A stretch of 63,853 bases of DNA, taken from Limisphaerales bacterium (lineage in GTDB: Bacteria; Verrucomicrobiota; Verrucomicrobiia; Limisphaerales; JAHDYP01). Shown piece by piece: positions 1-60,214 of this stretch. How positions within the stretch are numbered: the stretch's first letter is position 1; each line of letters begins with the position of its first letter. Made by a program: the position numbers and the translations under genes. A model generated the notes under the pieces. The model saw only the letters and a list, made by a program, of their open reading frames with translations, ran no database searches and had not been told where the DNA came from. Location: positions 1 through 63,853 of the forward strand of contig JBMTVN010000001.1 of the NCBI GenBank assembly GCA_049451415.1, given 5' to 3'.

Positions 1-1579
1 CCTCCAGCTCGCCCAGCGCCTCGGCCGCCGCGCCCTCCTCCTCGGCGCGGGCGGCGCTGCTGGGCCAACTACCATCCGTTGTAGCACCACTTCGACCCCC
101 ACCGCCACCACCGAAGCCGCCTCCCATACCACCACCGCCGGAGACGAACACCAGCTGAATGTCGAAGATACCGCCACCACCGCCCATGCCACCCATACCA
201 CCGCCCATACCACCCCCCATGCCGCCCATACCGCCGCCCATGCCGCCACCCATACCACCGCCGCCCATACCGCCGCCGGAACTACTGCCAACCAAGCTAC
301 CGAGCGGGAAGCTTCCCACGCCTTCAAGACCTTCCATGAAGGTGTTCGGGTTGACGCGGAAGATGCGCGTCTCGAGCTGCACGTCCGTCGCTTTTTGGCC
401 AAACACGATGGCATACTCTTCAATGGAGTATTTGATCGGTTTGTCGGCGACTTTGGTTACCGCTTCCAGAACATCCACCAACCGAAGGTTACGGAGAGGA
501 GGGGTAATGCGGATGAGCACGCTGTTCATGTCCAGCGGTTCAGGGGCCGGAGCCGGGATGAGCTGACCGGTTGTCGGATCCACCAGCGGCGCGGCTGCCG
601 ACGTGGCGAACACGTTGGGGTTGATCATGAAGTTGATCCCCGCCTTGTCAGGATCACGGTTGTACGCCTGTTCAGACAGGTAGCGAAGTACCTGAGGGAG
701 TGGCAAACCGTCAAACTCCACTTCGTCGATGTAAATCCGATGCAGTTTCGACTGGATGGCCGTCCTACCCGGACCGGTCCACACAGGGTTGATATCCACC
801 CCGCCGACAAACACATCGGCGTTGGGATTGGGCGTAGGAAGATCCTGCGCTGCAGTTGGAGGCAGCCAAGCGGCCTCGAGCTCAACCAACTTTTCTTTCA
901 CCATGATCTCACGGGCGCGAGCTCCATGAGCGTAACGCGCTTCGCCGATCAGCTTGATATAATACTGAGCAGCAGCGTTGTTGGGATCCAACCGGAAGGC
1001 TTCCTTGAGCTTCGACTCTGCCTCTTCGAGTCGACCCATCTCGTAGAGCAGCTTGCCGTCTTGCACCAACGTGCCGACCTGCTCCTGGAGCTTGGCGACT
1101 TCTGGTGCCAGATCCTGCACCGCTGTCGAAGGAACCCGACCGCGGAGTGCTGCCAGCGCCTTGTCGTTTTCGGTCTTCAGCTTTTGTGCCTCCGGATTGG
1201 CCGGATCGATACTGAGAACACGCTTGAGGTGCAGGTCAGCGTCGAAGAAATCACCGCGGCTCTGGGCAGTCTTCGCCTGCGCGATCCGCACTGTGCTAAA
1301 TCCAGCGATGGTGGCGCGCATCTCTGTTTCGGCTCCCGCGCCGACCTGTTGGCCGAACCGATAGGCCTCCTCGTACAGCCGTGCAGCTGCGCTCAGGTCG
1401 TTTTGCGCCTGGGCGTCTTGGGCGGATGCCAGAGTCTTGCGCAACAGAATCAGCGCCTCTTGCCTGCGCACTGCTTCCTCCGTGGCTAGGTCGGCGGGAG
1501 CCGCCGACTGCTGGGCAAGCACCGGCGCAGCCAGCAGAAACAAAACAAGCAATCGAGCTAGGGTAGCTGCTTTCGTCAT
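1..1579 (-). CDS. Secretin-family outer-membrane protein, N-terminal ~526 codons only (TPR-like repeats + N0/STN-like domain + Gly/Met tract); holds the Amuc_1098 position in an Amuc_1100-type cluster
   Basis: Absent from the ORF track because it runs off the left edge. Reading the minus strand from the ATG at 1579 gives an open frame to nt 1. It has a signal peptide (MTKAATLARLLVLFLLAAPVLAQQ) and TPR-like helices (EEAESKLKEAFRLDPNNAAAQYYIKLI). An N0-like domain (IYIDEVEFDGLPLPQVLRYLSEQA ... ETRIFRVNPNTF) resembles the N-terminus of the PilQ at 48271-49806. It ends in GGGMGGGGMGGGMGGGMGGMGGGMGGGMGGMGGGGG. The secretin C-domain itself lies outside the window. Confidence 0.6.
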   Translation of the reverse strand, partial: MTKAATLARLLVLFLLAAPVLAQQSAAPADLATEEAVRRQEALILLRKTLASAQDAQAQNDLSAAARLYEEAYRFGQQVGAGAETEMRATIAGFSTVRIAQAKTAQSRGDFFDADLHLKRVLSIDPANPEAQKLKTENDKALAALRGRVPSTAVQDLAPEVAKLQEQVGTLVQDGKLLYEMGRLEEAESKLKEAFRLDPNNAAAQYYIKLIGEARYAHGARAREIMVKEKLVELEAAWLPPTAAQDLPTPNPNADVFVGGVDINPVWTGPGRTAIQSKLHRIYIDEVEFDGLPLPQVLRYLSEQAYNRDPDKAGINFMINPNVFATSAAAPLVDPTTGQLIPAPAPEPLDMNSVLIRITPPLRNLRLVDVLEAVTKVADKPIKYSIEEYAIVFGQKATDVQLETRIFRVNPNTFMEGLEGVGSFPLGSLVGSSSGGGMGGGGMGGGMGGGMGGMGGGMGGGMGGMGGGGGIFDIQLVFVSGGGGMGGGFGGGGGGRSGATTDGSWPSSAARAEEEGAAAEALGELE

Positions 1580-1636
1580 GGTCTTGGGAGTGTTGGGTTG
1601 AGACTGCATAGAAATCAAATTGAAATCAGCGGATCA

Positions 1637-2464
1637 TTAATTTGCCGGCTGGTTGGTTCCGTTTTCAGACCGGGTGATGGTCGTTCGCTTTTTGTTGCTA
1701 ACAGCCTCCACCGTCACGCTTTTGGCTTCGATGGCCACAATGGCATTGGTGTCGCCGGCAAAGACGAGTTTGTCACCCACGCGTTTGTTGAGGAAGATTT
1801 GTTTATCCGGCGGGTAACTGAGATCCACGGTGTAGCCGGCCACCCCCTCGTAAGGGGCGTTGGTGCCGACTGTGATCGTCTGGTTTTCATCGATCATCTC
1901 CAGGCTGAATTCCTGCGGCGCTTCCACACTCGGTCGAATTTCGCGCAGGATGAAGACGTCATTCCGGGATCCGGCCCCAATGACCTCTCGCGTTTGGGCG
2001 GCGCGCTTGCGGGGATCACGGTGAGCCTCGCGGGCGAGTTTAAACTTGTGGGACCACTCCGAACCGCGGAGCACCGAACCCTCATAGCTGACCCTGAGCA
2101 TGAGCGGAGCGGACCGGGTGATCTTCAGTGCCCCGGGCCCAGTCTCGTTGCCCGTGACCACCTTGATGAGGTTGCCATCCCCGCGCTTTTTCCAAGTCAC
2201 GGGATTGAACAGGTTGTGGTCACCATCCAGCTGAACGCTGTCAGGTCGGCGCAACCGGTCCAGGACTGTCTGGTTGGTGGAGAGGTCAAGCACTTCCAAC
2301 CCCTTGGACCCCGGGCTGGCGTTCAGTTGCATGTAGGTGGCGATCCGGCCTCGCTCGGCTGCTACACCTAAGAAGAGGAAGATTGCAGCGGCCGCGAGAG
2401 CCACCAGCACCAGACTCAACACCACTTTTTCGTAGTGCTTTTTGAAAAACTTCACGAAATCCAT
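1637..2464 (-). CDS. Single-pass membrane protein of the pilus-like cluster (position equivalent to Amuc_1099)
   Basis: 275-aa ORF with ATG at 2464. It has an N-terminal TM helix (VVLSLVLVALAAAAIFLFLGV) followed by a beta-rich soluble part. It lies 13 nt downstream of the Amuc_1100-like gene and 57 nt upstream of the secretin-like gene. The family call is positional only. Confidence 0.55.
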   Translation of the reverse strand: MDFVKFFKKHYEKVVLSLVLVALAAAAIFLFLGVAAERGRIATYMQLNASPGSKGLEVLDLSTNQTVLDRLRRPDSVQLDGDHNLFNPVTWKKRGDGNLIKVVTGNETGPGALKITRSAPLMLRVSYEGSVLRGSEWSHKFKLAREAHRDPRKRAAQTREVIGAGSRNDVFILREIRPSVEAPQEFSLEMIDENQTITVGTNAPYEGVAGYTVDLSYPPDKQIFLNKRVGDKLVFAGDTNAIVAIEAKSVTVEAVSNKKRTTITRSENGTNQPAN

Positions 2465-2477
2465 GGAAATCTTCAGC

Positions 2478-3545
2478 TTAATTGGCAGCCACCAACGGCC
2501 GGACAGCTTCCACCCTCAACGTGAATCTGAGCAGTTGCTCATCCAATACGGTCTCGGGTCCTTTGCGTGCACTGCTTGCGACCGGCGCGTAATACGTGGG
2601 TGCCGCCGGGGCCGGAGTTGGAGATACTCTACCCCCTCCTGGCCGCACACCGTAACGGTTCATCATTTGTTGCTCGGCTGTCACCCCCCCACCGCCGGCT
2701 CCTCCATAGCGATTACCCATGCCGTAACGGTCAGCTAGATTTTGCGGTACACCCGCCGGGGCAGCGGGTGCGGGCATTGCGCCGTATCTGGACATCATCC
2801 CGGAGGTATCGGCCGGCGCGCTTTGCGGCGCTTGCTCAACATTGATGTTTTTGATGAGGAAACACTGCGGCGATTTGGCCAGCCCTTCCAGCACCGTGGC
2901 CAGCTCGCTGGAAAACCCTTGAAAAGTGACCTCGTAAGGTGTGGTGACTGCTTTGACCACGTTGTTGGTCGTCACGACGGCTCCGCGCAACGTTACCTGA
3001 GCATTGTCGTTGGTGGAGACTGCCGGCCGCAGGATGCGCAGCACTGAATGCACCCTGGCACTGTAGATTGTCTCACAGAGCGCCTTGATCTCCAGCAGCT
3101 GATACGTCCAGGGAAGGACCTCGCTGGGGGCAAAATTCATGCGCTCGCGTTGTGTGTCAAAAGTGTAGGCAAAGTCCTTGGGGCGTCTGACCCCCTGATT
3201 TTCGGCGAGCACGTTCAGCTCGTTGAGGGTATTTGCCAGGAGGAAGGTGAACTCGGCACTCGTGATATTGGTGTATTGAGCCACTGGAGCGAAGTATTTC
3301 CAGTATTCCTGCACCATTGCCTTGAGCCTCTCCTGCTCTGTCTTCGCGGCCTCGATGTTATCTTCCGTGACACTGGGGTTGGAGCTGTTGAGGCGGCCAA
3401 ACTCGCTGGCTTCACCTTCCAGTTCCTGGGAGATCTTGGAATTCTTGTCGTAGCTCGTGTAGAGAAAGAACCCGGAGGCCCCGAGGAGGACGAGTGCGAC
3501 CACTCCCCCCACAACGAGAATCAGATTTCGTTTGAACCAGGCCAT
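2478..3545 (-). CDS. Amuc_1100-family pilus-like protein
   Basis: 355-aa ORF with TM helix LILVVGGVVALVLLGASGFFLY and a long helical region. The segments EVTFQGFSSELATVLEGL, FLIKNINVEQ and LRFTLRVEAV parallel Amuc_1100 as I recall it (EIAFQGDRESVLKAMNAI, FTVNSIRIRNE, VFVQVSLNLVHF). An Ala/Pro/Gly/Met-rich insert (aa 239-325) carries four RYG motifs. Confidence 0.65.
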   Translation of the reverse strand: MAWFKRNLILVVGGVVALVLLGASGFFLYTSYDKNSKISQELEGEASEFGRLNSSNPSVTEDNIEAAKTEQERLKAMVQEYWKYFAPVAQYTNITSAEFTFLLANTLNELNVLAENQGVRRPKDFAYTFDTQRERMNFAPSEVLPWTYQLLEIKALCETIYSARVHSVLRILRPAVSTNDNAQVTLRGAVVTTNNVVKAVTTPYEVTFQGFSSELATVLEGLAKSPQCFLIKNINVEQAPQSAPADTSGMMSRYGAMPAPAAPAGVPQNLADRYGMGNRYGGAGGGGVTAEQQMMNRYGVRPGGGRVSPTPAPAAPTYYAPVASSARKGPETVLDEQLLRFTLRVEAVRPLVAAN

Positions 3546-3549
3546 GGCT

Positions 3550-5421
3550 TTAAAGTTTCAAAGGGTTTTTGAGTTTGAGCGTGACGCCGAAGCTGAATGT
3601 CAGCTCATCCACAGGGGTGATGTCACCGGACAGTTTGGTCCCTTCCGGGTCGAATATCTCGCTCTGCTGCAATTGACCTTGCAGAACATTGGCGAGGCGA
3701 AGGTCGGCCGTCGGATCCAGATTCTTGAGGCTCAACCCTTTGCAGGTAACGTTGATCACGCTCACTTCGTTGGTCGACCCCGTCGCTTTCGCCGAGGAGC
3801 TGGCTGCGCTGGCCTTATTGCCCATAACAGCTACGCCGTAGCGCTCCATCAGCAGGCGTTTGGATTCCTCGTCCATGGTGGCGTAGGGGTCGTTTTCCTC
3901 CTCCTCTTCGTATAAGTCAACCGAGGGCGTCGAGCCTGAGGACTGGAGGTTCGGGTTTGCGCTGGCGAAGCTTTCAATCCAGACACCGTTCTCCACCCCG
4001 TTCATTTCGGCCTTCCGAGTTGCCTCGGTGACCGCCAGGGCATGACGGAGTTCTTTCAGGACATCCGTCCAGAAGAAGCGTTGCGAAGACCATTCGTTCA
4101 GCAGGGAGACCTCATTTTTCAGGCTGCTCAATTTACTGAGTTCAGACTTAAGCCTGCGGTCGGTCTGCTGGAGGGGGGCCTTTTTCTCGGCTACCAGATC
4201 CCGGGTCCCGGTTTGCAGGGCCGCCAGTTTGGAGTAATACCCCCCGATGGCGAGCACCACCAAAATCAAGCTGAAGGCCGTGGCGATGAAGTAGGGTTGT
4301 TTTTGCGCGAGCTCCTGCCGTTGGAGGAACTTCTTGGGCATGAGGTTCAGTTCCAGCGGACACTGGGCGATGTTTCTCAACCCTAAGCCCACGACTTCAC
4401 CGAAACCATGCGCTACCGAGGCCAGCTCCTCCAAATTGATCGATGGGTCGATTTCAATATTCCTGAAGGGGTTGAAATACTCCACTTCGATCCCCAGCTT
4501 TTCAGCGAAGAACTGCGGGGTGTAGGGCATGATCGAGGCCCCGCCGGCGAGGAAGAGCCGTTGTGGCGCGCTCCCGCCCTGCTGACCACGATAAAACTGG
4601 ATCGTCTGGTTGACCTGAATATGCAGGCGGGTCATGACCTGACGGGCGATTTTTGAAATCTGCGCCTGCTTGGGATTATCGGGTTCCTCGTAAGCTCCCC
4701 CCAAACTAACGAATCCGTCTGCGATCTTGAATTGCTCAGCCTCGGCAAACCGCATCTTTGCCTCGGCCGCGAAATCCTGGGTTATGGAGTTTGCGCCGAT
4801 GTTGATACCGCGGGCGTATACCCTGCCCTGCTCGAAAAACAGGAGGTTGCTGGTCTTGGCGCCGATGTCCAGGAGCATGGAGCAGCCCTCCATGTCGCCG
4901 TAGTTGAACCGGAAAGCATTGGCGAGGGCCGCGATCGAAACATCGACAAGCTGAACCTTGAGCCCACCTGCTTCGGTCGTCCGGAACAGGCTTTCTACCA
5001 CGTCGTTCTTGATGGCGACGAGGAGCACCTCGAACTCGCCGGACGGCGTGGTACCGAGGATCTGATAGTCCCAGGCTACCTCCTCCAGCGGGAACGGGAC
5101 GTTCTGTTGTGCCTCGTATTGGATAATCTGGGCGACCTTGGAGGCATCAACCTGCGGCAGTTTGACGAACTTCGAGAAGACGTGATACCCGGCGGAGCAA
5201 GCATTGACGCTGCGGGCACCGAACCCGCGCTCGGCGATGAGTTCGGGGATGGCCTTACTCAGGGCTCGCTCCCGTGAGACGTCTTGGGATCCTTCAAAGC
5301 CCAAGCTGCGGATTCCAAATTGGCGCAGACGGATAACCCCGCTGTCCGTCGGCTCGAACTCCGCTGCTTTGAGGCTGCCCGCCCCAAAGTCCATCGAGAG
5401 AAATGACTTCGTGTTCAGCAT
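3550..5421 (-). CDS. PilM-like actin/FtsA-fold protein fused to a PilN-like segment (TM helix, coiled coil, C-terminal domain); Amuc_1101-type
   Basis: 623 aa. The N-terminus SMDFGAGSLKAAEF and LLDIGAKTSNL are PilM-like phosphate motifs. LELNLMP (aa 356-362) resembles the PilN INLLP signature. The TM helix PYFIATAFSLILVVLAIGGYY spans about aa 377-396, followed by a coiled coil. The gene ends 4 nt upstream of the next gene. Confidence 0.8.
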   Translation of the reverse strand: MLNTKSFLSMDFGAGSLKAAEFEPTDSGVIRLRQFGIRSLGFEGSQDVSRERALSKAIPELIAERGFGARSVNACSAGYHVFSKFVKLPQVDASKVAQIIQYEAQQNVPFPLEEVAWDYQILGTTPSGEFEVLLVAIKNDVVESLFRTTEAGGLKVQLVDVSIAALANAFRFNYGDMEGCSMLLDIGAKTSNLLFFEQGRVYARGINIGANSITQDFAAEAKMRFAEAEQFKIADGFVSLGGAYEEPDNPKQAQISKIARQVMTRLHIQVNQTIQFYRGQQGGSAPQRLFLAGGASIMPYTPQFFAEKLGIEVEYFNPFRNIEIDPSINLEELASVAHGFGEVVGLGLRNIAQCPLELNLMPKKFLQRQELAQKQPYFIATAFSLILVVLAIGGYYSKLAALQTGTRDLVAEKKAPLQQTDRRLKSELSKLSSLKNEVSLLNEWSSQRFFWTDVLKELRHALAVTEATRKAEMNGVENGVWIESFASANPNLQSSGSTPSVDLYEEEEENDPYATMDEESKRLLMERYGVAVMGNKASAASSSAKATGSTNEVSVINVTCKGLSLKNLDPTADLRLANVLQGQLQQSEIFDPEGTKLSGDITPVDELTFSFGVTLKLKNPLKL

Positions 5422-5578
5422 CTAGCAATTTGCTCACTCATGGGCATAACACAACTCGCCGCCGTCTCAAGGACCGCGGGCGTCGGCAATGAGTGAGACG
5501 GGAGCTGGTTACTGGAATTCAGGTGGAGGGTCAAACAGAAAAGCTCTACTCTTAGGCCTTGACGGCCGCTGTTTGGCT

Positions 5579-6601
5579 CTAACGAGCGGGGTGTTCGCGG
5601 AACCATTGGATCGTTTTCGCAAGGCCTGTTTCGAGGTCAACCTGCGGCGACCAGTTTAACAGCGTCTTGGCCCGTGTGATATCGGGCTTTCGTTGCCGGG
5701 GATCATCCTTGGGCAGTGGCCGGTAACGAACGGCGCTCTTGGATCCCGTAAGACGGGTAATCACCTTGGCAAATTCGAGGATGGTGAGCTCATGCGGGTT
5801 CCCGACATTTACCGGGTAGCTCTCCCCAGACATCATGAGCCGGTAGATCCCCTCGATCAGATCTGAGCAGTAGCAGAAGCTTCGTGTTTGCTGTCCCTTG
5901 CCGAAGACAGTGATCGCGCGCCCGGCCAGCGCCTGGCTGATAAAAGCGGGCACTACTCGCCCGTCGTGCAGCCTCATTCTCGGACCATAGGTATTGAAGA
6001 TCCGGACGATCCGGGTGGGGACGTGATGCTCACGGTGGTAGGCCATGGTTAGCGCCTCGGCGAACCGCTTGGCCTCGTCGTAACACCCGCGCGGTCCCAG
6101 CGTATTCACGTTTCCCCAGTAATCCTCAGTCTGGGGATGAACCAGGGGATCCCCATAAACCTCGGAGGTGGATGCCAGCAAAAACCTGGCTCCCTTGGCC
6201 TTGGCCAGACCCAAAGCCTTGTGTGTCCCGAGGGAGCCGACCTTGAGTGTCTGGATTGGCAGCTCCAGATAATCCACCGGGCTTGCGGGCGAAGCAAAAT
6301 GCCACACGTAATCCACCGACTCATCCAGAAAGAGAAACTCTGTTACATCCTGTTGGATGAATCGAAAATCGGTTTGCCCCGCCAGATGGTCGATGTTCTC
6401 GACCCGCCCGGTGACGAAATTGTCGATGCCTATGACGCGGTGACCGCGTTCGAGCAACAGGTCGACCAGATGAGATCCAAGGAATCCTGCAGCTCCGGTG
6501 ACTACCGACACGGGTTTATGCGTTCTGGACGCTGGTGAACGGCGGGAACGCTTGGCTGGTTTCTTCGTCTTATTTTTGGGGGCAGGCGGCATGGTTAACA
6601 A
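5579..6601 (-). CDS. UDP-glucuronate decarboxylase (UDP-xylose synthase), extended SDR
   Basis: Rossmann motif [12 protein letters not shown], catalytic YDEAKR motif, and UXS-like sequence throughout. The first 30 aa are Lys/Arg-rich ([25 protein letters not shown]). An in-frame GTG at 6511 would give a conventional N-terminus, so the start is uncertain. Confidence 0.85.
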
Positions 6602-6663
6602 TCTCCGGAATGAACATGGAAGAACCGGGACTGCCTGGGCGAACCTGAGAAAGCCTCTGGCGC

Positions 6664-8055
6664 TTAGCGAGCACCGGAACCCGTTAGCACAACCGGCACG
6701 GTACGACAGAGGATCTTGATATCAAGCATCAACGACCAGTTGTCGATGTACTCCAAGTCCAGCCTCACCCATTCCTTGAAATCTTGCAGGTCGCTGCGGC
6801 CACTGACCTGCCAGAGACAGGTGATGCCGGGCTTGACGCTCAGCCGACGTCGATGTGCCAGATCATCAAACCGGGCCACCTCATCCACAGGGAGGGGACG
6901 GGGCCCCACTAGGCTCATGTCACCCCGGATTACGTTCAGCAGCTGAGGGAACTCATCGATGCTGTATTTGCGCAGCAATCGGCCGATCGGGGTCACCCGC
7001 GGATCATTGGTCACCTTGAAAACCGGCCCACTCATTTCATTGAGTTTCTCCAGCTCATGCTTGCGCTGCTCCGCATCCGTGGTCATGGAACGGAACTTCA
7101 GCATGGTAAAGGGGCGACCATTGAGCCCGCATCGCTGCTGGCGGAAGAAGATCGGGCCCGAGGAGGAGAACCGTATAGCCACGGCTGAAGCCAGCATCAC
7201 GGGCGAAAAGAGCAGCAGGAGAAAACTTGCCCCGGCGATGTCGATGGCCTGTTTGGCGAGCACCTCCCATGAGGTCTCTGGTGCTGAACGGAAGACCAGC
7301 ATCGGGGTGCCGAGAAAGTCATCCAGGGATGTCTGGGAGATCTGGGTCTTGAAAAAGTCTGCTATCAACCAGACCTCAACGCCCTCCAGCTCACAAGCGG
7401 CGATCACCTTCTCCACCTGCCCGAAAACCGTGTGTTGAGCACAGAGCAGAACGCCGTTGGGTGCCTGGCGGTGCAGGCATTCCAGAAGCCGTTCGACCGG
7501 CATCTCATTCAGGTCCAACTCTTCCAGCACCTCGACCCCCTGCTGGAAGAGAACCGGCATCCGCAGCTTCAAGGCTTCACGGTCCTCCAAAGTCCCGACG
7601 ATGATCATTCGCCGACGCATGGCAGCTACCCGGGAGCTGTTCATCCAGCGAAGCAGAAACTCCTCTTTGAGCAGTAATAAAGAAAACCCTATACCGCCGA
7701 ATAGCATAACGACGCCTCGGGCTGGCCTTTCTGCCATGAGGAAGGCCACCACAACCAGTGCGAGGGTTACCCAGAAACTACCCCAAAAGGCCTGCCAAAG
7801 AGTCTGCCTGCGGGTTGGCCTCAAGGGACGCGAATAGAATCCCTGGAGTTGGAGCGACAGCGGTGTGACCAGGATGACAAAAACCAGCATCCAGGCGTAG
7901 TGAGTACCGAACGCATCAATTCCCGGGCGGTCGATCATCTCTCCAACCTCCGGCGTTGCCCTGAGCCACCAGGCAACCCAGAAGGCGAAGCAGAATATCC
8001 CCGTATCAATGATACGCTGGATGTCTAATAGAATTTGGCGCTCACGCCGTAGCAT
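6664..8055 (-). CDS. Polyprenyl-phosphate sugar phosphotransferase (WbaP/WcaJ-type priming glycosyltransferase)
   Basis: 463 aa with N-terminal TM helices. The C-terminal bacterial sugar-transferase domain shows [32 protein letters not shown] and [17 protein letters not shown]. Confidence 0.9.
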
Positions 8056-8238
8056 GTTGGGTCATTTGGACTCCAAGCGAAAACCGGAGCAACTCTAAAA
8101 TACCTGCAAGCTGCCTGGCGGGCACTGAGACCTTAACGAACTTAGAGAGGCTTTGACTCGCGCTGGCAAGCGTCCTTAAGCTGCGCGGCCAAACGTCGAA
8201 AGACAGCTATCGTGCTCTACCCCTCCGCCAACCTTCGT

Positions 8239-9456
8239 ATGCGCCCCCACGATGTTGTCGTTACCGGAGCGGGCATCATCACTGCCTTGGGGGTGGGCTG
8301 GGACGTGAACCTGCGGGGGTTCCGTTCCGGGAGGTCGGCACTGCGGCAGGTGCGAAATTTCGATGTTTCCCGTCAGCGCACCGGAAGAGCCGGGGAGGTC
8401 GACCTGCCCAAGGACTGGTGGCGCGGCTCTGGGATGAGCAAGAGCAGGGTCGCCCGTTGGGATCGTGCCCTGGCGATGCTCTGGCTGGCAGGTTCAGAAG
8501 CCTGGCGGCAAGCGGGTTGGGAAGCCCGGGCGGATATCCCCCTGGTGCTTGGCACGACCAGCGCAGGCATGCTGCGGGGCGAGGAGTTCTACCATCAAGC
8601 CCTTCAGGATGGCAGCTCGTGTCGGCACCAGCCATCACGCGTATTGCATTACCAGGCGCAACGGCAGGCCGCGGAAGCTGCTCACGCACTGGGTACCACC
8701 GGGCCTGCCACGATCATTTCCAACGCCTGCGCATCCGGTTCCAACGCAATTGGTCAGGCATGGGAACTGGTGCGCAGGGGAACGTATCCCCGAGTTCTTG
8801 CCGGCGGATACGAGGCCCTGTGCATGCTGGTTTTCAGCGGCTTTGACTCCCTGCAAGCCCTCTCGGCGTCGGGTTGCCGCCCCTTCGACACCAACCGTGA
8901 TGGCCTTAGCCTGGGCGAGGGGGCAGCGTTACTGGCCCTGGAGACCCTGGAGTCGGCACAATCCCGCCGGGCTGAGGTCCTTGGTGTGGTGGAGAGCTAT
9001 GCCTCCACTACGGATATTCACCATTTGACCCAACCGCATCCTGAGGGTGATGCAGCCCGGGCTGCCATGGATCTGGCCTGCACCAGGGCCGGGCTTGGCC
9101 CCGAGGCGATCCACTATCTGAACGCCCACGGAACAGGCACCCGCCTCAACGACGCAGCGGAAGCCAAAGCCATCAACGGCTGGGCCGGCTCCTGTGCGGC
9201 ACAACTTCCTGTCAGTTCCACCAAGCGCTGTGTGGGACATCTACTGGGCGCTGCCGGCGCAGTCGAAGCCGCGCTCTGTCTCATGGTGTTGCAGGGACAA
9301 TGGCTTCCCCCCATGCCAGAGTTGGCAGAACCCGATCCCCTCTGCGAGTTCCCCCTCGTCCGGGAACCAGCCGCTTCCAGAATCGAGCGTGTCATGTCCA
9401 ATTCCTTTGGTTTTGGCGGAGCGAACGCCTCGTTAATTCTCCGGAGGACCCCATGA
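8239..9456 (+). CDS. Beta-ketoacyl-ACP synthase (FabF-like KS) with an intact Cys-His-His triad
   Basis: Nucleophile motif IISNACASGSNAIG, His motifs TDIHHLTQP and LNAHGTGT, and SSTKRCVGHLLGAAG. The track ORF starts at GTG 8212. The ATG at 8239 gives the typical N-terminus MRPHDVVVTGAGI. Confidence 0.85.
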   Translation: MRPHDVVVTGAGIITALGVGWDVNLRGFRSGRSALRQVRNFDVSRQRTGRAGEVDLPKDWWRGSGMSKSRVARWDRALAMLWLAGSEAWRQAGWEARADIPLVLGTTSAGMLRGEEFYHQALQDGSSCRHQPSRVLHYQAQRQAAEAAHALGTTGPATIISNACASGSNAIGQAWELVRRGTYPRVLAGGYEALCMLVFSGFDSLQALSASGCRPFDTNRDGLSLGEGAALLALETLESAQSRRAEVLGVVESYASTTDIHHLTQPHPEGDAARAAMDLACTRAGLGPEAIHYLNAHGTGTRLNDAAEAKAINGWAGSCAAQLPVSSTKRCVGHLLGAAGAVEAALCLMVLQGQWLPPMPELAEPDPLCEFPLVREPAASRIERVMSNSFGFGGANASLILRRTP

Positions 9457-10469
9457 AGCCAGTCTGGATCAGCGGTCTCGGAGCCGTCTCGCCTGCGGGT
9501 TGGGGTGTGGAGCCCCTGCTTGATGCGGTCCGGGTCGGCAGCCCGCTGTCCACCATCGCGGTCGATGGGCCCCGGACGTTTCAGGCCAGGCTGGTCCCAC
9601 GTCCAACCTCAAGGCCGGCTATCCTGAGCCACCCTCGACTGCGCCGGAGCAGCTCCATCTCGCAATATGCGGCAGCTGCTGCAGAGGAAGCCGTTCAGCA
9701 ACTGCCCTGCGGGATGGAAGAACTTGGCATCCTGTTTAGCACTATGTGCGGCTCGGTTCGCTATACCCGCCGTTTCTATGCGGAAACCCTGGAGAATCCT
9801 TCAACCGCAAGCCCGATCCTCTTTCCTGAAACGGTGTTCAACGCCCCCGCCAGCCACGTAGCCGCCGCCCTGCAGGCGCCGGTGCCGGCCTACTCCATTG
9901 TTGGCGATTCCAGCGTTTTCCTCCAAGCCTTGGCTACCGGGGCCAACTGGGTCGCATCGGGCTTCGTCAAGGCAGCCCTCATCATTGCTGCGGAGGAAAG
10001 TGATTGGTCTGTCATGGAAGGCTGGAGGCTGTTCAGTCGCCATACCATCATGGCCGAGGGAGCAGCAGCGCTCTGCCTGACTTCAGTGCCTCCGCAGGAC
10101 AATCCCGTCTTGCTGGAGGGAGTCTACGATCCCTTCCCCTTCGACGCGTGGGGTTCACCGCAAGCCGCGACTGCCGGGCTTGCCAGGCAAATGCCACCAG
10201 CCACCCCGGGCGAATATCTCGTCGATAGCCGGTCGGGCATCCCCTGCTCCGACACCCTTGAGAACGCACTCTGGCCATCATGGTCAGGACAGCGGACGTC
10301 CCCCCGGGCCATCCTTGGCGAGGCCATGAGCGCGGCCACTGGCTGGCAATGCGTCATCGCCGCCAGCCTGCTCTCCGGATCCCCTATGGATGACGCCACC
10401 CACGCCCGTATCGTGTCGGTCGGCTGCAACCACCAGGCCATGGGGGCCCGACTCGCCCGGAGCACGTGA
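9453..10469 (+). CDS. KS-like partner protein lacking the catalytic Cys and His residues (chain-length-factor-like)
   Basis: The ATG at 9453 overlaps the KS stop codon (ATGA). The N-terminus MKPVWISGLGAVSPAGWG is KS-like. Aligned to the upstream KS, NACASG becomes VGDSSV (Cys to Ser), NAHGTGT becomes VDSRSGI, and VGHLLGAAG becomes LGEAMSAATG. Length 338 aa. Confidence 0.7.
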   Translation: MKPVWISGLGAVSPAGWGVEPLLDAVRVGSPLSTIAVDGPRTFQARLVPRPTSRPAILSHPRLRRSSSISQYAAAAAEEAVQQLPCGMEELGILFSTMCGSVRYTRRFYAETLENPSTASPILFPETVFNAPASHVAAALQAPVPAYSIVGDSSVFLQALATGANWVASGFVKAALIIAAEESDWSVMEGWRLFSRHTIMAEGAAALCLTSVPPQDNPVLLEGVYDPFPFDAWGSPQAATAGLARQMPPATPGEYLVDSRSGIPCSDTLENALWPSWSGQRTSPRAILGEAMSAATGWQCVIAASLLSGSPMDDATHARIVSVGCNHQAMGARLARST

Positions 10470-10572
10470 AGGCGCATCAAAGCCACGCGGGGCATGACTT
10501 CTGTCCATTTCTGTCTTGTCGCCACCCCGTCACCACCCACAACCTTCCACAGAGCAAACACCCAGCCGTGCG

Positions 10573-10872
10573 ATGGAAGCTAACCAGGAATTCAAGAACA
10601 AGCTGAAGGAACTCCTCGTGGAGAACCTTATGCTTCAGGTCACCCCCGAGGAAATCGCCGATAGCCAACCCCTGTTTGGCCCGGGCAGCCTGGGTTTAGA
10701 CTCCGTGGATGCCCTGCAGCTTGTTGTGGTTCTGGACAAGAATTACGGGTTGAAGATTCCCGATCCGGATGCCGCAAGGTCGATACTCGAAAGTGTGAGC
10801 ACAATCGCGGACGCCATCAGCAAACTACCTGCGCCAACTGGCGGCTCGTCGACGGAGACCCAGTCCGGCTAG
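10573..10872 (+). CDS. Acyl carrier protein (phosphopantetheine-binding)
   Basis: The LGLDSVDALQLVVVLDKNYGL motif carries the Ser attachment site (DS). The ATG at 10573 gives a 99-aa product. The track ORF begins earlier, at 10516. Confidence 0.8.
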   Translation: MEANQEFKNKLKELLVENLMLQVTPEEIADSQPLFGPGSLGLDSVDALQLVVVLDKNYGLKIPDPDAARSILESVSTIADAISKLPAPTGGSSTETQSG

Positions 10873-42681: not shown

Positions 42682-43563
42682 TTAACGCTCGTCCTTCCGG
42701 ACCGTGTGGTAACGCATCCGCTCGGCATCGGTTTGGTTAGGCCCAATCGTGATTCGGCCGAAATCCGCCAAGGTCACAGGCTGGAGTGTTTCAGGAGCAA
42801 TCCACTTCTTGATCTCAGAATGTCCATCAATGAACGCAAAGCCACAGTCCCCATTGTGATAACTCGCCGGAACATCTATCCATTAGGTGGAAGTAGGTGA
42901 AAACAGACCGGCATCATTGATACTGTCCGGATGCTCATCCACATAGATCCAGGCCTCGGATGGCGACGGATAGATCACCTCGGTCATTTTCATGACGTGC
43001 TTGTAAATCCCATCAAAAGGGCCGTCTTCAGCGTTGCCTGCGCCCACGCCAATGCTGCTGGAAACACTGCGAACCCGTTCGATCCAGCCAAGCGCTCTCT
43101 GTGTCGGGTGAACGTATTTGTCGGCCGCACACTTGTAGATGTTCTTGGTGTTACTGAAGTAGGTGGCCAATTTGGAATAGCGCGGGTCAATGAGGTAAAG
43201 GGTATTGGTGTTGTCCCTGCGTCCGTCCCTTGTGAGCCAACCCGCCACCCAGGGCCCGTCCGGATCATCCGCCGTGGGGTTTTGCGCCCGCCCCCCGTGG
43301 GTTGCGCCGGGAAACTGGTCATCATTATCACCGGCATACATGTGCGTCGCCAAACTCAGCTGCTTGGTGTAGTTCATACACAGAATACCCTGTGCCTTGG
43401 TTTTGGCTTTCGCCAAGGCAGGCAAAAGCATCCCGGCCAGGATGTCGATGATCGCGATCACCACGAGTAATTCAATCAGGGTAAACCCCGCACTACGACG
43501 CATGGGCTGGGAAGTTGGGAATGGTCCTCCTGGGGCATTCATGGTCGTGGTTCCGGCTCTCAC
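42682..43563 (-). pseudogene. H-X9-DG (DUF1559-type) prepilin-like protein interrupted by an in-frame TAA
   Basis: The track ORF 42883-43563 has a prepilin leader ([25 protein letters not shown]) and ends ...FSPTST*. The same frame continues after the TAA at 42883-42885 as WIDVPASYHNGDCGFAFIDGHSEIKKW... to a TAA at 42682-42684. This continuation contains the H-X9-DG signature. The total of 882 nt is divisible by 3. Confidence 0.75.
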
Positions 43564-46770: not shown

Positions 46771-48213
46771 ATGCATACCTTGTTGCTCATTGATGACGAA
46801 GCCGACGTGCAGTATTCGTTCAAAAGGATCTTCGACACCCCGAGCGTCCGCCTGCTTCCCGCCACCAGCGGAGAGGAGGGCCTGCATCTGTTGACGAAAG
46901 TCCAACCCGATGTCGTAATCATGGACATTCGGATGGGAGGCATGAGCGGACTGGAGACTCTTCGCAAGTTGCGGGAGATCGACGGCAAGATTCCCGTCAT
47001 CATGATGACGGCTTACGGCACGACGCGAACCGCGATCGAGGCCATGAAGCTCGGCGCTTTCGATTATCTTTTAAAGCCTTTTGAGATTGATCGCCTGAAG
47101 CAGGTGGTGAACTCAGCCCTGAAGGCCGCCGAGGATATGCGACAGGTGGTGTCCTACGAGCCCCTGCTGGAATCGGAAGACTATGACCTGGGGATCATTG
47201 GCCGCTCTGAGCCAATGCAGACTGTATTCAAGACTATCGGCCAGGTTGCAGGTTCCGATGCCACAGTCCTGATCACCGGAGAGAGCGGCACCGGCAAGGA
47301 ACTGGTCGCCCGGGCCATCTACCATCACAGCCAAAGAAGCGAACGCCCTTTCCTGGCAATCAATTGCGCTGCCATACCTGAGCAGCTGCTCGAGTCAGAA
47401 CTCTTCGGCCATGAAAAGGGGGCTTTCACTGGAGCCACCAGCCAGCGCATCGGCAAATTCGAACAATGCCACGGTGGAACCCTCTTCCTGGACGAGATCG
47501 GCGATATGTCGCCCTCTACCCAGACTAAGATCCTCCGCGTGCTGCAATCGGGTGTCTTCGAGAGGATCGGCGGCAACCAATCCATCCAGACTGATGTCCG
47601 GATTATTGCCGCCACCAACCGCCCCCTTGAGCAAGCCGTCGGGGAAAAAACCTTCCGCGAAGATCTCTTCTACAGACTGAATGTGGTGAGGATCCGCCTG
47701 CCGGCGCTCCGCGAACGCCCACAGGACATCGCCTTACTAGTGGACTACTTCCTGAAGAAGCAGGCACAGGCTGCCAAGTCCGCAGTGAGGAGTGTTTCCA
47801 CAGAGGCGATGCAAAAATTGATGGCGCATCCGTGGCCAGGGAACGTGCGCGAGCTCGAAAACGCCATCCACCGTGCTGTGGTTTTGTCAAAGGGCGATGT
47901 GGTGGGCATCTCAGACCTCCCGCCTGAGGTCTTGGGGGCGGTGGCTGACAAAGGGTCTGAGATCCTCACTCTGGAACCGGCATTGCAACAGCCCACCACA
48001 CCCGAACAGTTGGCCACAGCCCTGTTCGAGTGGGCTAAGACCCACCCCGACCTTCCCGTCATCCCAGCCGTCGAACGGGAGCTTATCCGTCAGGCCTTGC
48101 TGGAAACCCAAGGCAATCAGGTCAAGGCGGCCCGACTGCTGGGCATCACCCGCGCAACCTTGCGGAAGCGTATCGAACGCTTCCAACTGCGCCGCGAACT
48201 GGCCGTTAACTAA
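46771..48213 (+). CDS. Sigma54-dependent response regulator (NtrC/PilR-type enhancer-binding protein)
   Basis: Receiver domain (LLLIDDEADV, VVIMDIRMGGMSG), AAA+ domain (GESGTGKE, GAFTGA motif in EKGAFTGATS, ESELFGHE) and a C-terminal Fis-type HTH (NQVKAARLLGITRATLRKRI). Confidence 0.9.
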   Translation: MHTLLLIDDEADVQYSFKRIFDTPSVRLLPATSGEEGLHLLTKVQPDVVIMDIRMGGMSGLETLRKLREIDGKIPVIMMTAYGTTRTAIEAMKLGAFDYLLKPFEIDRLKQVVNSALKAAEDMRQVVSYEPLLESEDYDLGIIGRSEPMQTVFKTIGQVAGSDATVLITGESGTGKELVARAIYHHSQRSERPFLAINCAAIPEQLLESELFGHEKGAFTGATSQRIGKFEQCHGGTLFLDEIGDMSPSTQTKILRVLQSGVFERIGGNQSIQTDVRIIAATNRPLEQAVGEKTFREDLFYRLNVVRIRLPALRERPQDIALLVDYFLKKQAQAAKSAVRSVSTEAMQKLMAHPWPGNVRELENAIHRAVVLSKGDVVGISDLPPEVLGAVADKGSEILTLEPALQQPTTPEQLATALFEWAKTHPDLPVIPAVERELIRQALLETQGNQVKAARLLGITRATLRKRIERFQLRRELAVN

Positions 48214-49806: not shown

Positions 49807-49901
49807 TCTTATGATCGTTAACGGGTTATGTATTACTGTTGAACCGACACTAGCAACTTCCGCGCCACACCACGCTCAGACTCCCTATATGACCTCGGCC
49901 A

Positions 49902-50447
49902 CTATTCCAACTGTTTCCGGTAGACGTTGGTCTTACCCACGACAACAAACTCAACCGAGTTCTCGTAGACCCGGAGCACCTTGAGCTTCAGCTGCCCCAA
50001 ATCATCCGGAAGCTTCACTGGAGCCTCATCTCCCTCCATAAACGTCTTGCCATTAATCAACGCCACCTTGGAACCCTCGAACCCCGTAATACCCCGAAGG
50101 GCAACATGCCGAGCTACCAGCTGCTCCTCCGGCACAACAGCCTGAACCGGACCGGTCTCCGCCCTCCCCCAGCGTCGACGTGATGTAGGGAAAAATGGGT
50201 CCTTCACATCCGCGCTCTCCTCGGTAATGAAGACCGACTTGGGAATGTCGAACTGGAACGGCTTGGAAGCCGGCGCACTTTCTTCAGCGACCTCCTGCTC
50301 ATCCGCAGAGGCAGCAGCCTCAGATTCATCGGCCGCTGCCGCTACATGGCCAGGGAAAGCCAGCGAACAGACGATCAGGCAACCGCACAGAGTGGTAGCA
50401 GTCCGGAACATAGCAGAAATCGAGAGGGGTATGAGGTAATCCTTCAT
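49902..50447 (-). CDS. PilP-like pilus assembly protein (tentative)
   Basis: 181 aa with a signal peptide and an acidic linker. The C-terminal beta domain is LRGITGFEGSKVALINGKTFMEGDEAPV...LKVLRVYENSVEFVV. The gene sits between pilO-like and pilQ, and its start overlaps the pilO-like stop. Confidence 0.5.
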   Translation of the reverse strand: MKDYLIPLSISAMFRTATTLCGCLIVCSLAFPGHVAAAADESEAAASADEQEVAEESAPASKPFQFDIPKSVFITEESADVKDPFFPTSRRRWGRAETGPVQAVVPEEQLVARHVALRGITGFEGSKVALINGKTFMEGDEAPVKLPDDLGQLKLKVLRVYENSVEFVVVGKTNVYRKQLE

Positions 50448-51082: not shown

Positions 51083-51085
51083 GTC

Positions 51086-51760: not shown

Positions 51761-51764
51761 AGGG

Positions 51765-59947: not shown

Positions 59948-60214
59948 GGCACGACTGGTTTTGGATTCGCAAGGAACCGTGCGCATGTCTCAGTTTGCTG
60001 TCGTTTCGATGAATGTCAACGCGTGGACATACGTAGCCCGCAGGGCCTTTTAGGCCCGCATCGCGAAAGAAATAGGGAGACGGAAGCCCTCGTTAACCCT
60101 GAATTCGTCTTTGACACTCCGAATGCCGATTGGCAAGGTGCCCGCTCGATTGACAAGGGTTGCAGGCGGGATAAAAGGATTCCGCGGAACTGCCCTCGTA
60201 ACTGAAAATATCTT

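Follow-up and report, generated by a model that had tools for sequence, protein, structure and literature searches.

Organization of the locus

The analysed window is a stretch of 63,853 nucleotides from an uncultured freshwater Verrucomicrobiota. At its left end, the minus strand carries four tightly packed machine genes (102-5421), the secretin gene being incomplete in the window, preceded by a pair of sugar genes:

1-101, no strand: contig end, unreliable, not part of the secretin reading frame that the sister contigs show
102-1579, minus: Amuc_1098-type secretin, N-terminal half (TPR_2, Amuc_1098_fam)
1637-2464, minus: single-pass inner-membrane protein of 275 aa whose periplasmic part is beta-rich, in the Amuc_1099 position (PilP/GspC position)
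2478-3545, minus: Amuc_1100-family, PilO-fold bitopic protein, 355 aa (Amuc_1100_fam, PF28028, AF2/Foldseek)
3550-5421, minus: PilM-PilN fusion, 623 aa (Amuc_1101_fam, TIGR01175, PF11104), with an actin-like PilM domain (aa 10-350), a PilN-type motif CPLELNLMP (aa 354-362) and a TM helix (aa 377-396) followed by a coiled coil and a periplasmic domain
5422-5505, minus: presumed 5' leader of the machine operon, able to form a hairpin
5506-5535, minus: TTTGACC-N17-TAACCA, a promoter-like motif with a T-rich tract before it, located 84 nt ahead of the start codon of PilM-PilN
5579-6601, minus: UDP-glucuronate decarboxylase (UDP-xylose synthase, UXS), about 337-340 aa (human UXS1 match)
6664-8055, minus: WbaP/EPS-type polyprenyl-phosphate glycosyl-1-phosphate transferase of 463 aa, with a membrane domain at its N-terminus (TIGR03025, PF02397)

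By checking ORFs and strands in the window, we recovered the packing described in the first-pass annotation, with spacers of 4, 13 and 57 nt between the machine genes, as well as the UXS and transferase genes upstream on the same strand, after gaps of 157 and 62 nt, respectively. The order of the four machine genes is strictly co-linear in all of the more than 80 related loci that we compared, which are the best-scoring relatives of one query rather than a phylum-wide sample. As already noticed in the first reading, no pilin, PilB/PilT or PilC gene lies next to the module in the window, and we found no pilin, ATPase, pseudopilin, PilC/GspF or prepilin peptidase gene in this locus or in the related ones.

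The conserved unit extends past the window edge, and the four window genes make up only its first half. Three large signal-peptide proteins directly follow the secretin in 20/20 loci with enough sequence, and likewise in the closest long relative (L091), while a large S8 protease comes next in the two loci reaching that far. None of the large downstream proteins carries a PEP-CTERM tail. The three secreted proteins and the S8 protease are therefore expected just past the left edge of the window.

The machine proteins are diverged homologues of the Akkermansia MUL2 core

The secretin half (ORF 2-1579) matched TPR_2 (E 1.5e-7) and positions 16-377 of the Amuc_1098_fam profile (E 3e-35), and comprises a signal peptide, a TPR region, an alpha/beta domain and the start of a poly-Gly(Met) linker, from about position 289 leftwards. 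By blastn, window positions 102-330 matched the sister contigs L002 and L007 (98-99%) and L004 (about 95%), whereas bases 1-101 matched none of the three and look like a contig-end artefact within the poly-Gly coding repeat. The secretin domain predicted beyond the left edge was recovered on L004 and L002, where the full gene matched PF00263 (E 7.5e-28) and scored 356 bits against Amuc_1098_fam (cut-off 750) and 135 bits against GspD (cut-off 351). The complete protein, of about 910 aa, combines an N-terminal TPR region with a C-terminal secretin domain, and no AMIN-domain family was found in its Pfam scan.

The PilM-PilN fusion matched Amuc_1101_fam (E 3.7e-142, 475 bits; curated cut-off 650), TIGR01175 pilM (153 bits, over the cut-off of 133), PF11104 and PilM of the M. 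xanthus type IVa pilus machine (3JC8_M, E 6e-35). Its C-P-x-E-x-N-L-x-P signature is invariant among 20 relatives. In profile comparison, its likeness to the separate PilN encoded in the window is weak (E 0.002). The periplasmic domain is broken by a disordered loop with an RYG motif (aa 527). PilM and PilN do form a single 623-aa polypeptide, as first annotated, but this is a family trait rather than a peculiarity of the locus, since the curated Amuc_1101 profile itself has 608 positions, 1-514 of them covered by our alignment.

For the 2478-3545 product, membership in the Amuc_1100 family was confirmed by profile (Amuc_1100_fam, E 2.7e-21, 76 bits; cut-off 180), by its precomputed Pfam assignment (PF28028) and by structure. 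Its AF2 model (pLDDT 73) matched the Amuc_1100 crystal structures 6LAD, 6LAF and 6KNY in Foldseek (E 1e-8 to 2e-7; target TM-score 0.58-0.70), the next matches being PilO (2RJZ and 5UVR at probability 0.90-0.96, 3JC8_O at 0.60). The protein starts with a TM helix, continues with further helices and a ferredoxin-like core, and ends, after a disordered loop holding four RYG motifs (aa 253, 273, 279 and 297), in a beta-strand.

The 275-aa protein was proposed as the Amuc_1099 equivalent. Its position agrees, the gene always lying between the Amuc_1100-like and secretin genes in the related loci, but no direct match to Amuc_1099_fam (cut-off 50) was obtained. Among relatives scanned singly, 7/10 matched only the N-terminal 40-95 profile positions (12-22 bits vs 50), and 3/34 members matched in a family-alignment scan at E<=0.01, so that the likeness of the family, which counts 913 representatives at 50% identity, appears weak and N-terminal only. 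The AF2 model (pLDDT 83) shows small beta-barrel domains besides a TM helix and a long helix, and matched no solved structure; neither a lipobox nor a PilP-like fold match was found.

Together these data indicate that the module belongs with the Akkermansia Amuc_1098-1101 (MUL2) core as a diverged homologue and is not a new kind of machine. It shares with Amuc_1098-Amuc_1102 the order PilM-type, Amuc_1100-type, small bitopic protein and TPR-secretin (PMC4960237; PMC5332112), the joining of PilM and PilN in one polypeptide, the Amuc_1100 fold (Foldseek E ~1e-8) and a secretin of about 910 aa with the same N- and C-terminal parts. The Amuc_1101/1100/1099/1098-type arrangement proposed in the first reading holds. 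MUL2 synteny across Verrucomicrobiales has been published (PMC13174399; bioRxiv 10.64898/2025.12.30.696933). Differences were also apparent. First, as previously noticed for the operon, Amuc_1102 (MUL2A) is absent here and in the relatives. Second, the transferase and UXS lie upstream here, and in relatives an exosortase upstream and three secreted proteins downstream. Third, the host is free-living in freshwater, with no mucin niche. Finally, all four proteins score under the NCBIfam equivalog cut-offs (475/650, 76/180, no hit/50 and 356/750), so function is not simply transferable from Akkermansia.

The module is separate from a second pil set and carries its own promoter-like motif

The module had been viewed as an envelope machine distinct from a canonical pilMNOPQ elsewhere in the window (48271-52826). 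It is indeed separate from that second set, but it is not an unknown machine, Amuc_1098-1102 being the MUL2 locus. In the second set, only PilM and the secretin are solid, whereas the assignments of PilN and PilO are weak and PilP is identified from its position alone.

The module might itself be a true type IV-like pilus platform, that is a second PilMNOPQ set building an adhesive fibre with pilins and a PilB/PilC motor encoded elsewhere. Like the type IVa pilus, it has an actin-like PilM, over the TIGR01175 cut-off and resembling T4aP PilM structures, an 'INLLP'-like PilN motif followed by a TM helix, and an order matching pilMNOPQ, in which a PilO-fold protein and a fourth, small one precede the secretin. 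Prepilin-type genes are found in the window (42883-43563 and 59054-59986), and pili-like structures were reported in Akkermansia (PMC5332112). In contrast to the type IVa pilus, the module joins PilM to PilN in one chain and has disordered loops with RYG motifs within its PilN-like and PilO-like domains; its fourth protein is anchored by a TM helix and shows neither a lipobox nor a PilP-like fold match, and its secretin begins with a TPR/poly-Gly region, no AMIN family having appeared in the Pfam scan. Given also that no pilin or motor gene is linked to the module in any of the 80+ loci and that the genome already has the more canonical pilMNOPQ-like set, we consider a pilus platform improbable.

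The first-pass annotation had also raised a single transcript from 8055 to 1. A main transcript of this kind is unlikely because a strongly conserved promoter-like motif, resembling -35 and -10 elements, lies in the UXS/PilM spacer. The only perfect match to TTTGACC-N17-TAACCA within the window is at 5506-5535; under the strict pattern, the motif stands 45-87 nt upstream of the PilM-PilN gene in 29/42 related loci, with a degenerate version visible in most of the others, and regardless of whether UXS is upstream. These observations point to a start site proper to the machine. No intergenic terminator-like site was found. Folding of the presumed leader gave a modest signal (MFE -28.5 kcal/mol, z -1.8), with no Rfam match for 5422-5505.

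Sugar genes accompany the machine in half of its relatives

The transferase matched TIGR03025 EPS_sugtrans (386.7 bits, over the cut-off of 295.55) and PF02397 (E 1.6e-68); assignment to the XrtA-specific subfamily TIGR03013 was rejected (212.9 bits vs 393). UXS matched Pfam Epimerase and GDP_Man_Dehyd; among solved structures it is closest to human UXS1 (2B69/4GLL, E 7e-111, 374 bits), well ahead of the following SDR at 144 bits.

The linkage of these genes to the machine proved to be conserved. The pair is directly upstream in 18/36 related loci, which are scattered across the PilM-PilN tree, deepest branches included; counted separately, UXS occupies this place, on the same strand, in 17/36 loci and the transferase in 16/36. 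EpsI occurs in 9/12 loci with room for it and EpsH in 5, often ahead of the transferase/UXS pair, and an exosortase was detected in related loci (TIGR02602, 111.6 bits, over the cut-off of 105.55). Within the 64-kb window, there is no exosortase, nor any glycosyltransferase, flippase or oligosaccharyltransferase alongside the pair. As the pairing is kept in about half of the relatives, it suggests that the machine handles sugar-decorated cell-surface material; the earlier idea of a glycoconjugate rather than a fibre is likewise a suggestion from gene neighbourhood.

Alternatively, the adjacency could be functionally meaningless, the two enzymes serving LPS or exopolysaccharide synthesis in an inherited gene order. 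The conserved promoter between the two units fits such a view, as do the 18/36 relatives without the pair, both of which count against a glycan link, the other neighbours of the Akkermansiaceae loci in PMC13174399 and the drawing of the 80 loci from the top relatives of one query. However, the order, strand and position of the pair are kept where PilM-PilN is only 48-65% identical to that of the window, and the most distant locus (L008), whose Amuc_1099-position protein is only 27% identical, still has it. Moreover, genes further out vary while the pair stays, the block recurs with EpsI and EpsH, and no other family is comparably retained beside the module, downstream secreted proteins aside. 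A meaningless adjacency thus seems to us rather doubtful.

A proposed outward conduit for surface (glyco)proteins

In type II secretion systems (T2SS), the natural equivalent of a fused PilM-PilN is GspL, the PilO-like component is GspM, and GspC, anchored by a TM helix, makes the connection to the secretin. The module fits this plan of three proteins plus a secretin, and large signal-peptide proteins stand alongside it in relatives. Unlike a T2SS, the module has no GspL or GspM HMM match, a GspD score far under cut-off and no GspE, GspF or GspG-K genes in the locus. Related loci also recall PEP-CTERM/exosortase systems, with an exosortase, EpsI, an EPS-type transferase and sometimes a WecG-family glycosyltransferase before the module, whereas the window has no exosortase and its transferase is not of the TIGR03013 type. 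Haft et al. 2006 on PEP-CTERM do not mention a secretin or pilus, and in our full-text searches neither secretins nor PilM-type proteins were listed as parts of such systems. As a precedent for an outward route, proteins with two other C-terminal sorting tags, GlyGly-CTERM and MYXO-CTERM, cross the outer membrane through a T2SS secretin (PMC11980579).

The opposite direction, glycan import, is the function suggested for MUL2 of Akkermansia and of marine Akkermansiaceae: with the help of a pilus-like fibre, the secretin complex would capture large polysaccharides or mucin-type glycoproteins and bring them into the periplasm for 'selfish' degradation, and the sugar genes here would serve an unrelated envelope function. 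The MUL2 genes (Amuc_1098-1102) are reported to be required for mucin acquisition and accumulation in A. muciniphila, a phenotype opposite to an outward reading, and MUL2 synteny is reported in aquatic relatives that take up labelled fucoidan (PMC13174399; PMC12418764; bioRxiv 10.64898/2025.12.30.696933). The homology of the window proteins to Amuc_1101, Amuc_1100 and Amuc_1098 is clear. Nevertheless, the 80 loci show no conserved glycoside hydrolase, sulfatase or sugar transporter next to the module, MUL2A, the pilin-like part of the proposed model, is missing, and the Akkermansia phenotype could be indirect, via lost export of surface proteins. The only known inward transport via a secretin is DNA uptake, which needs a retracting pilus and its ATPases, and neither is encoded here. 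We regard import as less likely than export, but as a serious alternative.

The homology, architecture, gene order and conservation of the machine are direct observations. As to function, we favour a T2SS/T4P-derived outward conduit for surface (glyco)proteins, with a probability of about 0.5. The large signal-peptide proteins and the S8 protease downstream speak for an outward role, whereas the lack of motor, pilin and prepilin peptidase genes in all the loci, of a PEP-CTERM tail on the downstream proteins, and of an exosortase or further glycan-assembly genes in the window speaks against this reading. The four genes would be transcribed from their own conserved promoter at 5506-5535. The cytoplasmic actin-like PilM, fused to a PilN-type membrane anchor in a GspL-like architecture, would pair in the inner membrane with the PilO/GspM-fold Amuc_1100 homologue, and the 275-aa protein would bridge to the periplasmic domains of the TPR-bearing secretin, the putative gated outer-membrane pore. 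As in type II secretion and type IV pilus platforms, the complex would work outward, with pseudopilins and an ATPase presumably encoded elsewhere, and deliver large (glyco)proteins, either secreted or surface-bound, to the outer membrane or beyond it. The priming transferase and UXS may provide a lipid-linked glycan containing xylose, to be attached either to the cargo or to the Ala/Pro/Ser-rich loops of the machine, which would explain why the pair, often with EpsH/EpsI, is kept in about half of the lineages.

Gene layout and the contig end

Mapping the ORFs at the left end of the window gave the following arrangement, in the order of transcription.

6664-8055, minus strand, priming transferase, 463 aa
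5579-6601, minus strand, UDP-xylose synthase (UXS), 340 aa
3550-5421, minus strand, PilM-PilN fusion, 623 aa
2478-3545, minus strand, Amuc_1100-like protein, 355 aa
1637-2464, minus strand, 275-aa protein
start at 1579 and running off the left edge, minus strand, partial TPR/secretin ORF
102-289, minus strand (L002:12135-12420 in a sister contig), Gly/Met-rich run of the source-organism secretin

From the transferase through the secretin, the spacers measure 62, 157, 4, 13 and 57 nt, and the ORFs, strands and spacers are as the first-pass annotation had drawn them. A mobile-element or foreign origin of the locus was ruled out, base composition being even along the whole window and the neighbours being housekeeping genes. 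An Rfam scan of positions 1-9000 returned no match.

The source is a MAG of an uncultured member of the Verrucomicrobiota from Shark River Slough, and an exact-sequence look-up found the 275-aa protein in 18 contigs of this same organism. Positions 102-330 of the window align at 98-99% with two sister contigs (L002 and L007) and at about 95% with a third (L004). These three contigs agree with each other, and none of them aligns with positions 1-101. Since the break falls where the secretin gene codes for its poly-Gly repeat and the terminal stretch mismatches the sister contigs, the left end of the window is probably an assembly artefact caused by contig-end misassembly.

Composition of the predicted machine

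Relatives of the module were collected by a metagenome scan with an alignment of Amuc_1100-like proteins (479 relatives found, 80 loci fetched) and by exact look-ups, which gave 4 more. The loci were mapped by tblastn and by unsupervised clustering of all their ORFs.

At the edge, the partial ORF contains TPR repeats, and Amuc_1098_fam aligns to it with its N-terminal half (E 3e-35). The complete gene, coding for about 909-918 aa, is carried by the sister contigs L004 and L002. Given that Pfam Secretin (PF00263) was found in this full gene (E 7.5e-28), the half beyond the edge does have a secretin domain and the original TPR/secretin assignment stands. Moreover, the full protein from L004 matched both halves of Amuc_1098_fam (NF042912; 356 bits, E 5e-106, cut-off 750). 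All secretins of the family (related loci L008-L087) have two Gly-rich runs, with 50-87% Gly per 30 residues, on either side of a conserved IPRVxV strand; this stretch joins the TPR/N-terminal part to the secretin core. Here gene callers frequently break the ORF in two, and the Gly-rich runs are probably the cause of both the assembly and the gene-caller breaks. Relatives of the secretin carry names such as Limisphaerales, Verrucomicrobiales and Verrucomicrobiae.

The fusion protein scored 475 bits against Amuc_1101_fam (NF045709; E 3.7e-142, curated cut-off 650), its residues 1-516 aligning with positions 1-514 of the 608-position profile. Its N-terminal domain scored 153.2 bits with TIGR01175 pilM, above the cut-off of 133, matched Pfam PilM_2 (PF11104) over residues 10-350 (E 1.1e-34), and resembles 3JC8_M, the PilM of the solved type IVa pilus machine (E 6.4e-35). 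Directly past this domain, a C-P-x-E-x-N-L-x-P motif is invariant in 20 relatives; its window version, CPLELNLMP at aa 354-362, is followed by a TM helix. In canonical PilN, an N-terminal 'INLLP' motif binds PilM, and by sequence the motif of the fusion matches it in position and form. By BLASTP and hhalign, the C-terminal half was only weakly related to the separate PilN encoded in the window (profile comparison, E 0.002) and to the Amuc_1100-like family, in each case over the TM helix and coiled coil alone; the weak profile comparisons gave E 0.002 and 4e-4, and a PDB profile search with this half gave no match. Therefore, the PilN label rests mainly on motif and topology. Since the curated Amuc_1101 profile is itself 608 positions long and was aligned over positions 1-514, the predicted PilM/PilN fusion is a trait of the family and not peculiar to the window locus. 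Profile span, motif and TM helix agree with the single PilM and PilN-like polypeptide of 623 aa proposed at first.

For the 355-aa protein, the Amuc_1100 assignment made at first was confirmed in three ways. First, it matched Amuc_1100_fam (NF038287; E 2.7e-21, 76 bits, cut-off 180). Second, PF28028 is on record for it. Third, Foldseek matched its AlphaFold model (pLDDT 73) to the Amuc_1100 crystals 6LAD, 6LAF and 6KNY with a probability of 1.00 (E 8.5e-9 to 2e-7, target TM-scores 0.58-0.70). Next in the list came the PilO structures 2RJZ and 5UVR (probability 0.90-0.96) and 3JC8_O (0.60). PDB sequence and profile searches with this protein found no match, and fold comparison alone succeeded.

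Both the PilN-like and PilO-like proteins have a periplasmic domain interrupted by a disordered loop with an RYG motif, which is present in four copies in the Amuc_1100-like protein of the window (2649-2789, minus strand) and once in the fusion (3835-3843, minus strand). Among related loci, RYG occurs in 67/88 Amuc_1100-like ORFs and 30/49 fusion ORFs, and in only 1/65 ORFs of the 275-aa type and 1/21 secretins. This motif may serve as a candidate docking motif.

The 275-aa protein had been placed at Amuc_1099 in the gene order. It is a single-pass protein with an uncleaved N-terminal TM helix and no lipobox, and its operon position and topology are those of Amuc_1099. It had no match to Amuc_1099_fam or to the other family models even at E<=10, and 7 of 10 scanned relatives matched only the first 40-95 Amuc_1099_fam positions (12-22 bits, cut-off 50). 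A profile search of 1.8 billion representatives found 913 family members at 50% identity, with a conserved N-terminal anchor and an HNLFNP motif, and no bridge to Akkermansia Amuc_1099 among the best 150 matches listed. The model (pLDDT 83) consists of the TM helix, a long helix and small beta-barrel domains; Foldseek found no meaningful match for it (best TM-score about 0.15) and no PilP/GspC fold was seen. We treat this protein as the positional equivalent of Amuc_1099 and an analogue of PilP or GspC, and it is probably a remote Amuc_1099 homologue.

Gene order and downstream secreted proteins in relatives

The order fusion, Amuc_1100-like, 275-aa type and secretin was kept in every surveyed locus. 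Past the secretin, three large signal-peptide proteins follow in 20/20 loci reaching beyond it. The first, of about 650 aa, has fn3 and TSP3-like repeats, and the other two measure about 470-770 and 960-1250 aa. Examples from four related loci are the following.

L091:11345-21221, three signal-peptide proteins after the secretin
L009:13955-20798, the same
L008:12786-16876, the same
L010:14724-20795, the same

Some loci have an interposed 5'-3' exonuclease gene. Both loci reaching far enough go on with a protein of >1200 aa that combines Flg_new_2 repeats and a Peptidase_S8 domain. L091 is the closest long relative, its fusion being 70% identical to that of the window. Given that it repeats the window arrangement upstream (divergent ketoacyl synthases, transferase, UXS) and continues downstream with the three proteins and then the large S8 protease, the window very probably has, in its four genes, only the leading half of an array of 7-8 genes that the contig end cuts.

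As the first-pass annotation had noticed beside the module, motor and pilin genes are lacking: there is no PilB, PilT or PilC within the 64-kb window, and none of the 80+ related loci has a conserved pilin, secretion ATPase or PilC/GspF family. Its report of no Amuc_1102-like ORF also held. Between UXS and the fusion gene we found only the spacer of 157 nt with its promoter-like motif, no conserved extra gene occupies the Amuc_1102 position in 36 related loci, and none of eight unassigned window ORFs matched Amuc_1102. In L008, a 237-aa gene between transferase and UXS was rejected as an Amuc_1102 equivalent, its product having several TM segments and no PDB, Pfam or NCBIfam match.

The set at 48271-52826, described earlier as a complete canonical pilMNOPQ, was upheld in part: PilM and the secretin are clear, PilN and PilO/GspM are weak, and position is the sole ground for naming the fifth protein. 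On one side of the set lies a sigma-54-dependent response regulator (46771-48213), on the other a GDP-mannose 4,6-dehydratase (53264-54277) and a GDP-fucose-synthase-like epimerase (54354-55292), so that this second secretin set also neighbours nucleotide-sugar genes. Two proteins with N-terminal methylation motifs of the prepilin type and GspG-like N-termini are encoded at 42883-43563 and 59054-59986 (both minus strand), unlinked to either secretin module.

Glycan-priming genes and exosortase in the upstream neighbourhood

The 340-aa SDR protein upstream of the module is a predicted UDP-glucuronate decarboxylase (374 bits and E 7e-111 with human UXS1; next SDR 144 bits). The transferase is, by profile, a full-length EPS/WbaP-type polyprenyl-phosphate glycosyl-phosphotransferase: it scored 387 bits with TIGR03025 (cut-off 296) and 212.9 bits with the XrtA-type TIGR03013 (cut-off 393.35), which places it in the general EPS class. 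Divergently from it, 8212-10872 (plus strand) codes for an acyl carrier protein, a ketoacyl synthase and a KAS-like protein. Among the locus neighbours and housekeeping genes of the window we found no polysaccharide polymerase, flippase or export gene.

Upstream genes were counted in 36 non-redundant loci with at least 1.2 kb of upstream sequence. UXS is directly upstream of the fusion and on the same strand in 17 of them, the transferase alone in 1 more, and the transferase precedes UXS wherever the sequence reaches. The sugar-pair adjacency noticed in the window is hence conserved in part of the relatives (18/36). In a neighbour-joining tree of the fusion proteins these linked loci are scattered, deepest branches included, which argues that the linkage was retained rather than inherited once and recently.

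Further upstream, EpsI was found in 9/12 loci with room for it and the exosortase EpsH in 5, its assignment resting on TIGR02602 (111.6 bits, cut-off 105.55). These five related loci have EpsH and EpsI on the same strand before the transferase/UXS pair and the machine genes, about 2.7-4.6 kb upstream of the fusion.

L009:3446-5130, EpsH and EpsI
L026, L028, L029 and L069, the same arrangement

In two exosortase-bearing loci, a WecG/TagA-family glycosyltransferase also precedes the sugar pair. Three other loci encode a 519-aa ORF family upstream of EpsI, at the site expected for an exosortase (one copy at L022:200-1843); it has no match to the L009 exosortase and may be a different or fused exosortase type. 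Within the 64-kb window itself, tblastn found no exosortase or EpsI.

A conserved promoter-like motif upstream of the fusion gene

By aligning the spacers between UXS and the fusion gene, we found a motif TTTT..TTTGACC-N17-TAACCAGC. With a strict pattern, it lies 45-87 nt upstream of the fusion ATG in 29/42 loci, whether UXS is upstream or not, and degenerate copies are visible in most of the remaining loci. The window copy (5506-5535, minus strand, 84 nt from the fusion ATG) is the sole perfect match in 64 kb. A generic sigma-70 and terminator scan was uninformative between the genes, the conserved motif having been missed because of its atypical -10 box. The machine genes have their own, evidently important putative start site, so that a single transcript from 8055 to 1 is not required, and read-through from UXS may occur since no intergenic terminator-like site was found. 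The 84-nt leader (about 5422-5500, minus strand) could form a long hairpin of modest significance (-28.5 kcal/mol, z -1.8) and had no Rfam match.

Comparison with known systems

The envelope gene cluster Amuc_1098-1102 is abundant in A. muciniphila (PMC5332112). This cluster is what defines MUL2, a locus with a reported importance for the acquisition of mucin (bioRxiv 10.64898/2025.12.30.696933). A 2026 study described MUL2 synteny in aquatic Akkermansiaceae and other Verrucomicrobiales, with lower conservation in Chthoniobacterales (PMC13174399). Since this cluster and its synteny are already published, the module is a machine of a known kind, judged on its sequence a diverged Amuc_1098-1101 type; it stands apart by its degree of divergence, the lack of Amuc_1102 (MUL2A) and the neighbourhood.

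First, the module shares with MUL2 the Amuc_1101-, Amuc_1100- and TPR-secretin Amuc_1098-type proteins, but it stays below the same-function cut-offs (475/650, 76/180, none/50 and 356/750 bits) and has no Amuc_1102 pilin-like gene upstream of the fusion. Second, it resembles the type IVa pilus in its actin-like PilM (TIGR01175 above cut-off, 3JC8_M) and probably in a PilO-like fold (2RJZ and 5UVR, probability 0.90-0.96) and a PilN-like part with the LNLMP motif, whereas a PilP-type lipoprotein or beta-sandwich is missing, the 275-aa protein being TM-anchored without a lipobox, and no pilin, PilB/PilT or PilC lies beside the module in the window or the 80+ related loci. Third, the likeness to type II secretion is architectural only: the secretin scored 135 bits with GspD (cut-off 351), the inner-membrane proteins had no GspL or GspM match, and the locus has no GspE, GspF or GspG gene. 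Fourth, it differs from PEP-CTERM/exosortase systems in that the window lacks EpsH/EpsI (EpsI in 9 and EpsH in 5 of the related loci) and the transferase is not of the XrtA type (212.9 against 393.35). The predicted architecture of the module is that of the PilM/N/O/P/Q or GspL/M/C/D portion of a type IV filament machine. It comes with a conserved putative promoter of its own and with a conserved partner, the glycan-priming pair, joined in relatives by an exosortase and three large secreted proteins.

Direction and cargo of the machine

We propose that the complex would span the envelope and work outward, with pseudopilins and an ATPase encoded elsewhere, and that its cargo would be large secreted or surface proteins, possibly glycan-modified. 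We give this surface-display reading a probability of about 0.5. It is supported by the signal-peptide proteins co-encoded in relatives, by the precedent of the GlyGly-CTERM and MYXO-CTERM sorted proteins, which cross the outer membrane via the type II secretin (PMC11980579), and by a 2006 paper, which proposed that some unknown route takes PEP-CTERM proteins to the outer membrane or across it (PMC1569441). Against it stand the absence of a linked motor gene and of an exosortase in the window, the sugar genes missing in half of the relatives, and the mucin-uptake phenotype reported for Akkermansia (PMC13174399). That phenotype would fit glycan import, in line with the proposal in the same study that MUL2 is a type IV-like pilus serving attachment and the uptake of fucose-rich glycans; we hold import to be a serious but less likely alternative for this module. 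The idea, raised by the first-pass annotation, that the apparatus handles a glycoconjugate may be right and has its evidence in the gene neighbourhood, the sugar-pair linkage being conserved in 18/36 loci. As a whole, its observations stood and its interpretation did so in part.

Within the outward reading, a bolder and improbable version is that, in Verrucomicrobiota, the PEP-CTERM/exosortase pathway has its missing outer-membrane step in the Amuc_1098-1101-type secretin complex. In that case, the priming transferase, UXS and, in some lineages, a WecG-type transferase would build a lipid-linked glycan, EpsH/EpsI would transfer cleaved PEP-CTERM proteins to it, and both these glycoconjugates and the large secreted proteins encoded alongside would reach the cell surface through the secretin machine. 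Such a route would mirror the use of the type II secretin by GlyGly-CTERM and MYXO-CTERM proteins, and Akkermansia MUL2 mutants would acquire mucin poorly because their surface is bare rather than because an import channel is blocked.

Few proteins of the gut bacterium Akkermansia, a therapeutic candidate, have been studied as much as Amuc_1100 and those encoded next to it, and what their machine carries, and which way, is still debated. The passage of PEP-CTERM proteins across the outer membrane has likewise been a question since 2006. What gives the finding its moderate interest is the comparative pattern more than the locus itself. The comparison of about 80 relatives shows that the core machine is ancient and common among free-living Verrucomicrobiota. 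Pilin or motor genes are never linked to it, a glycan-priming pair and an exosortase repeatedly lie upstream, and the same set of large secreted proteins follows downstream. Experimental handles are offered by the conserved promoter, the poly-Gly linker of the secretin, the connector protein and the RYG loops. The downstream secreted proteins are concrete cargo candidates, and the outward reading is a testable alternative to the glycan-import model.
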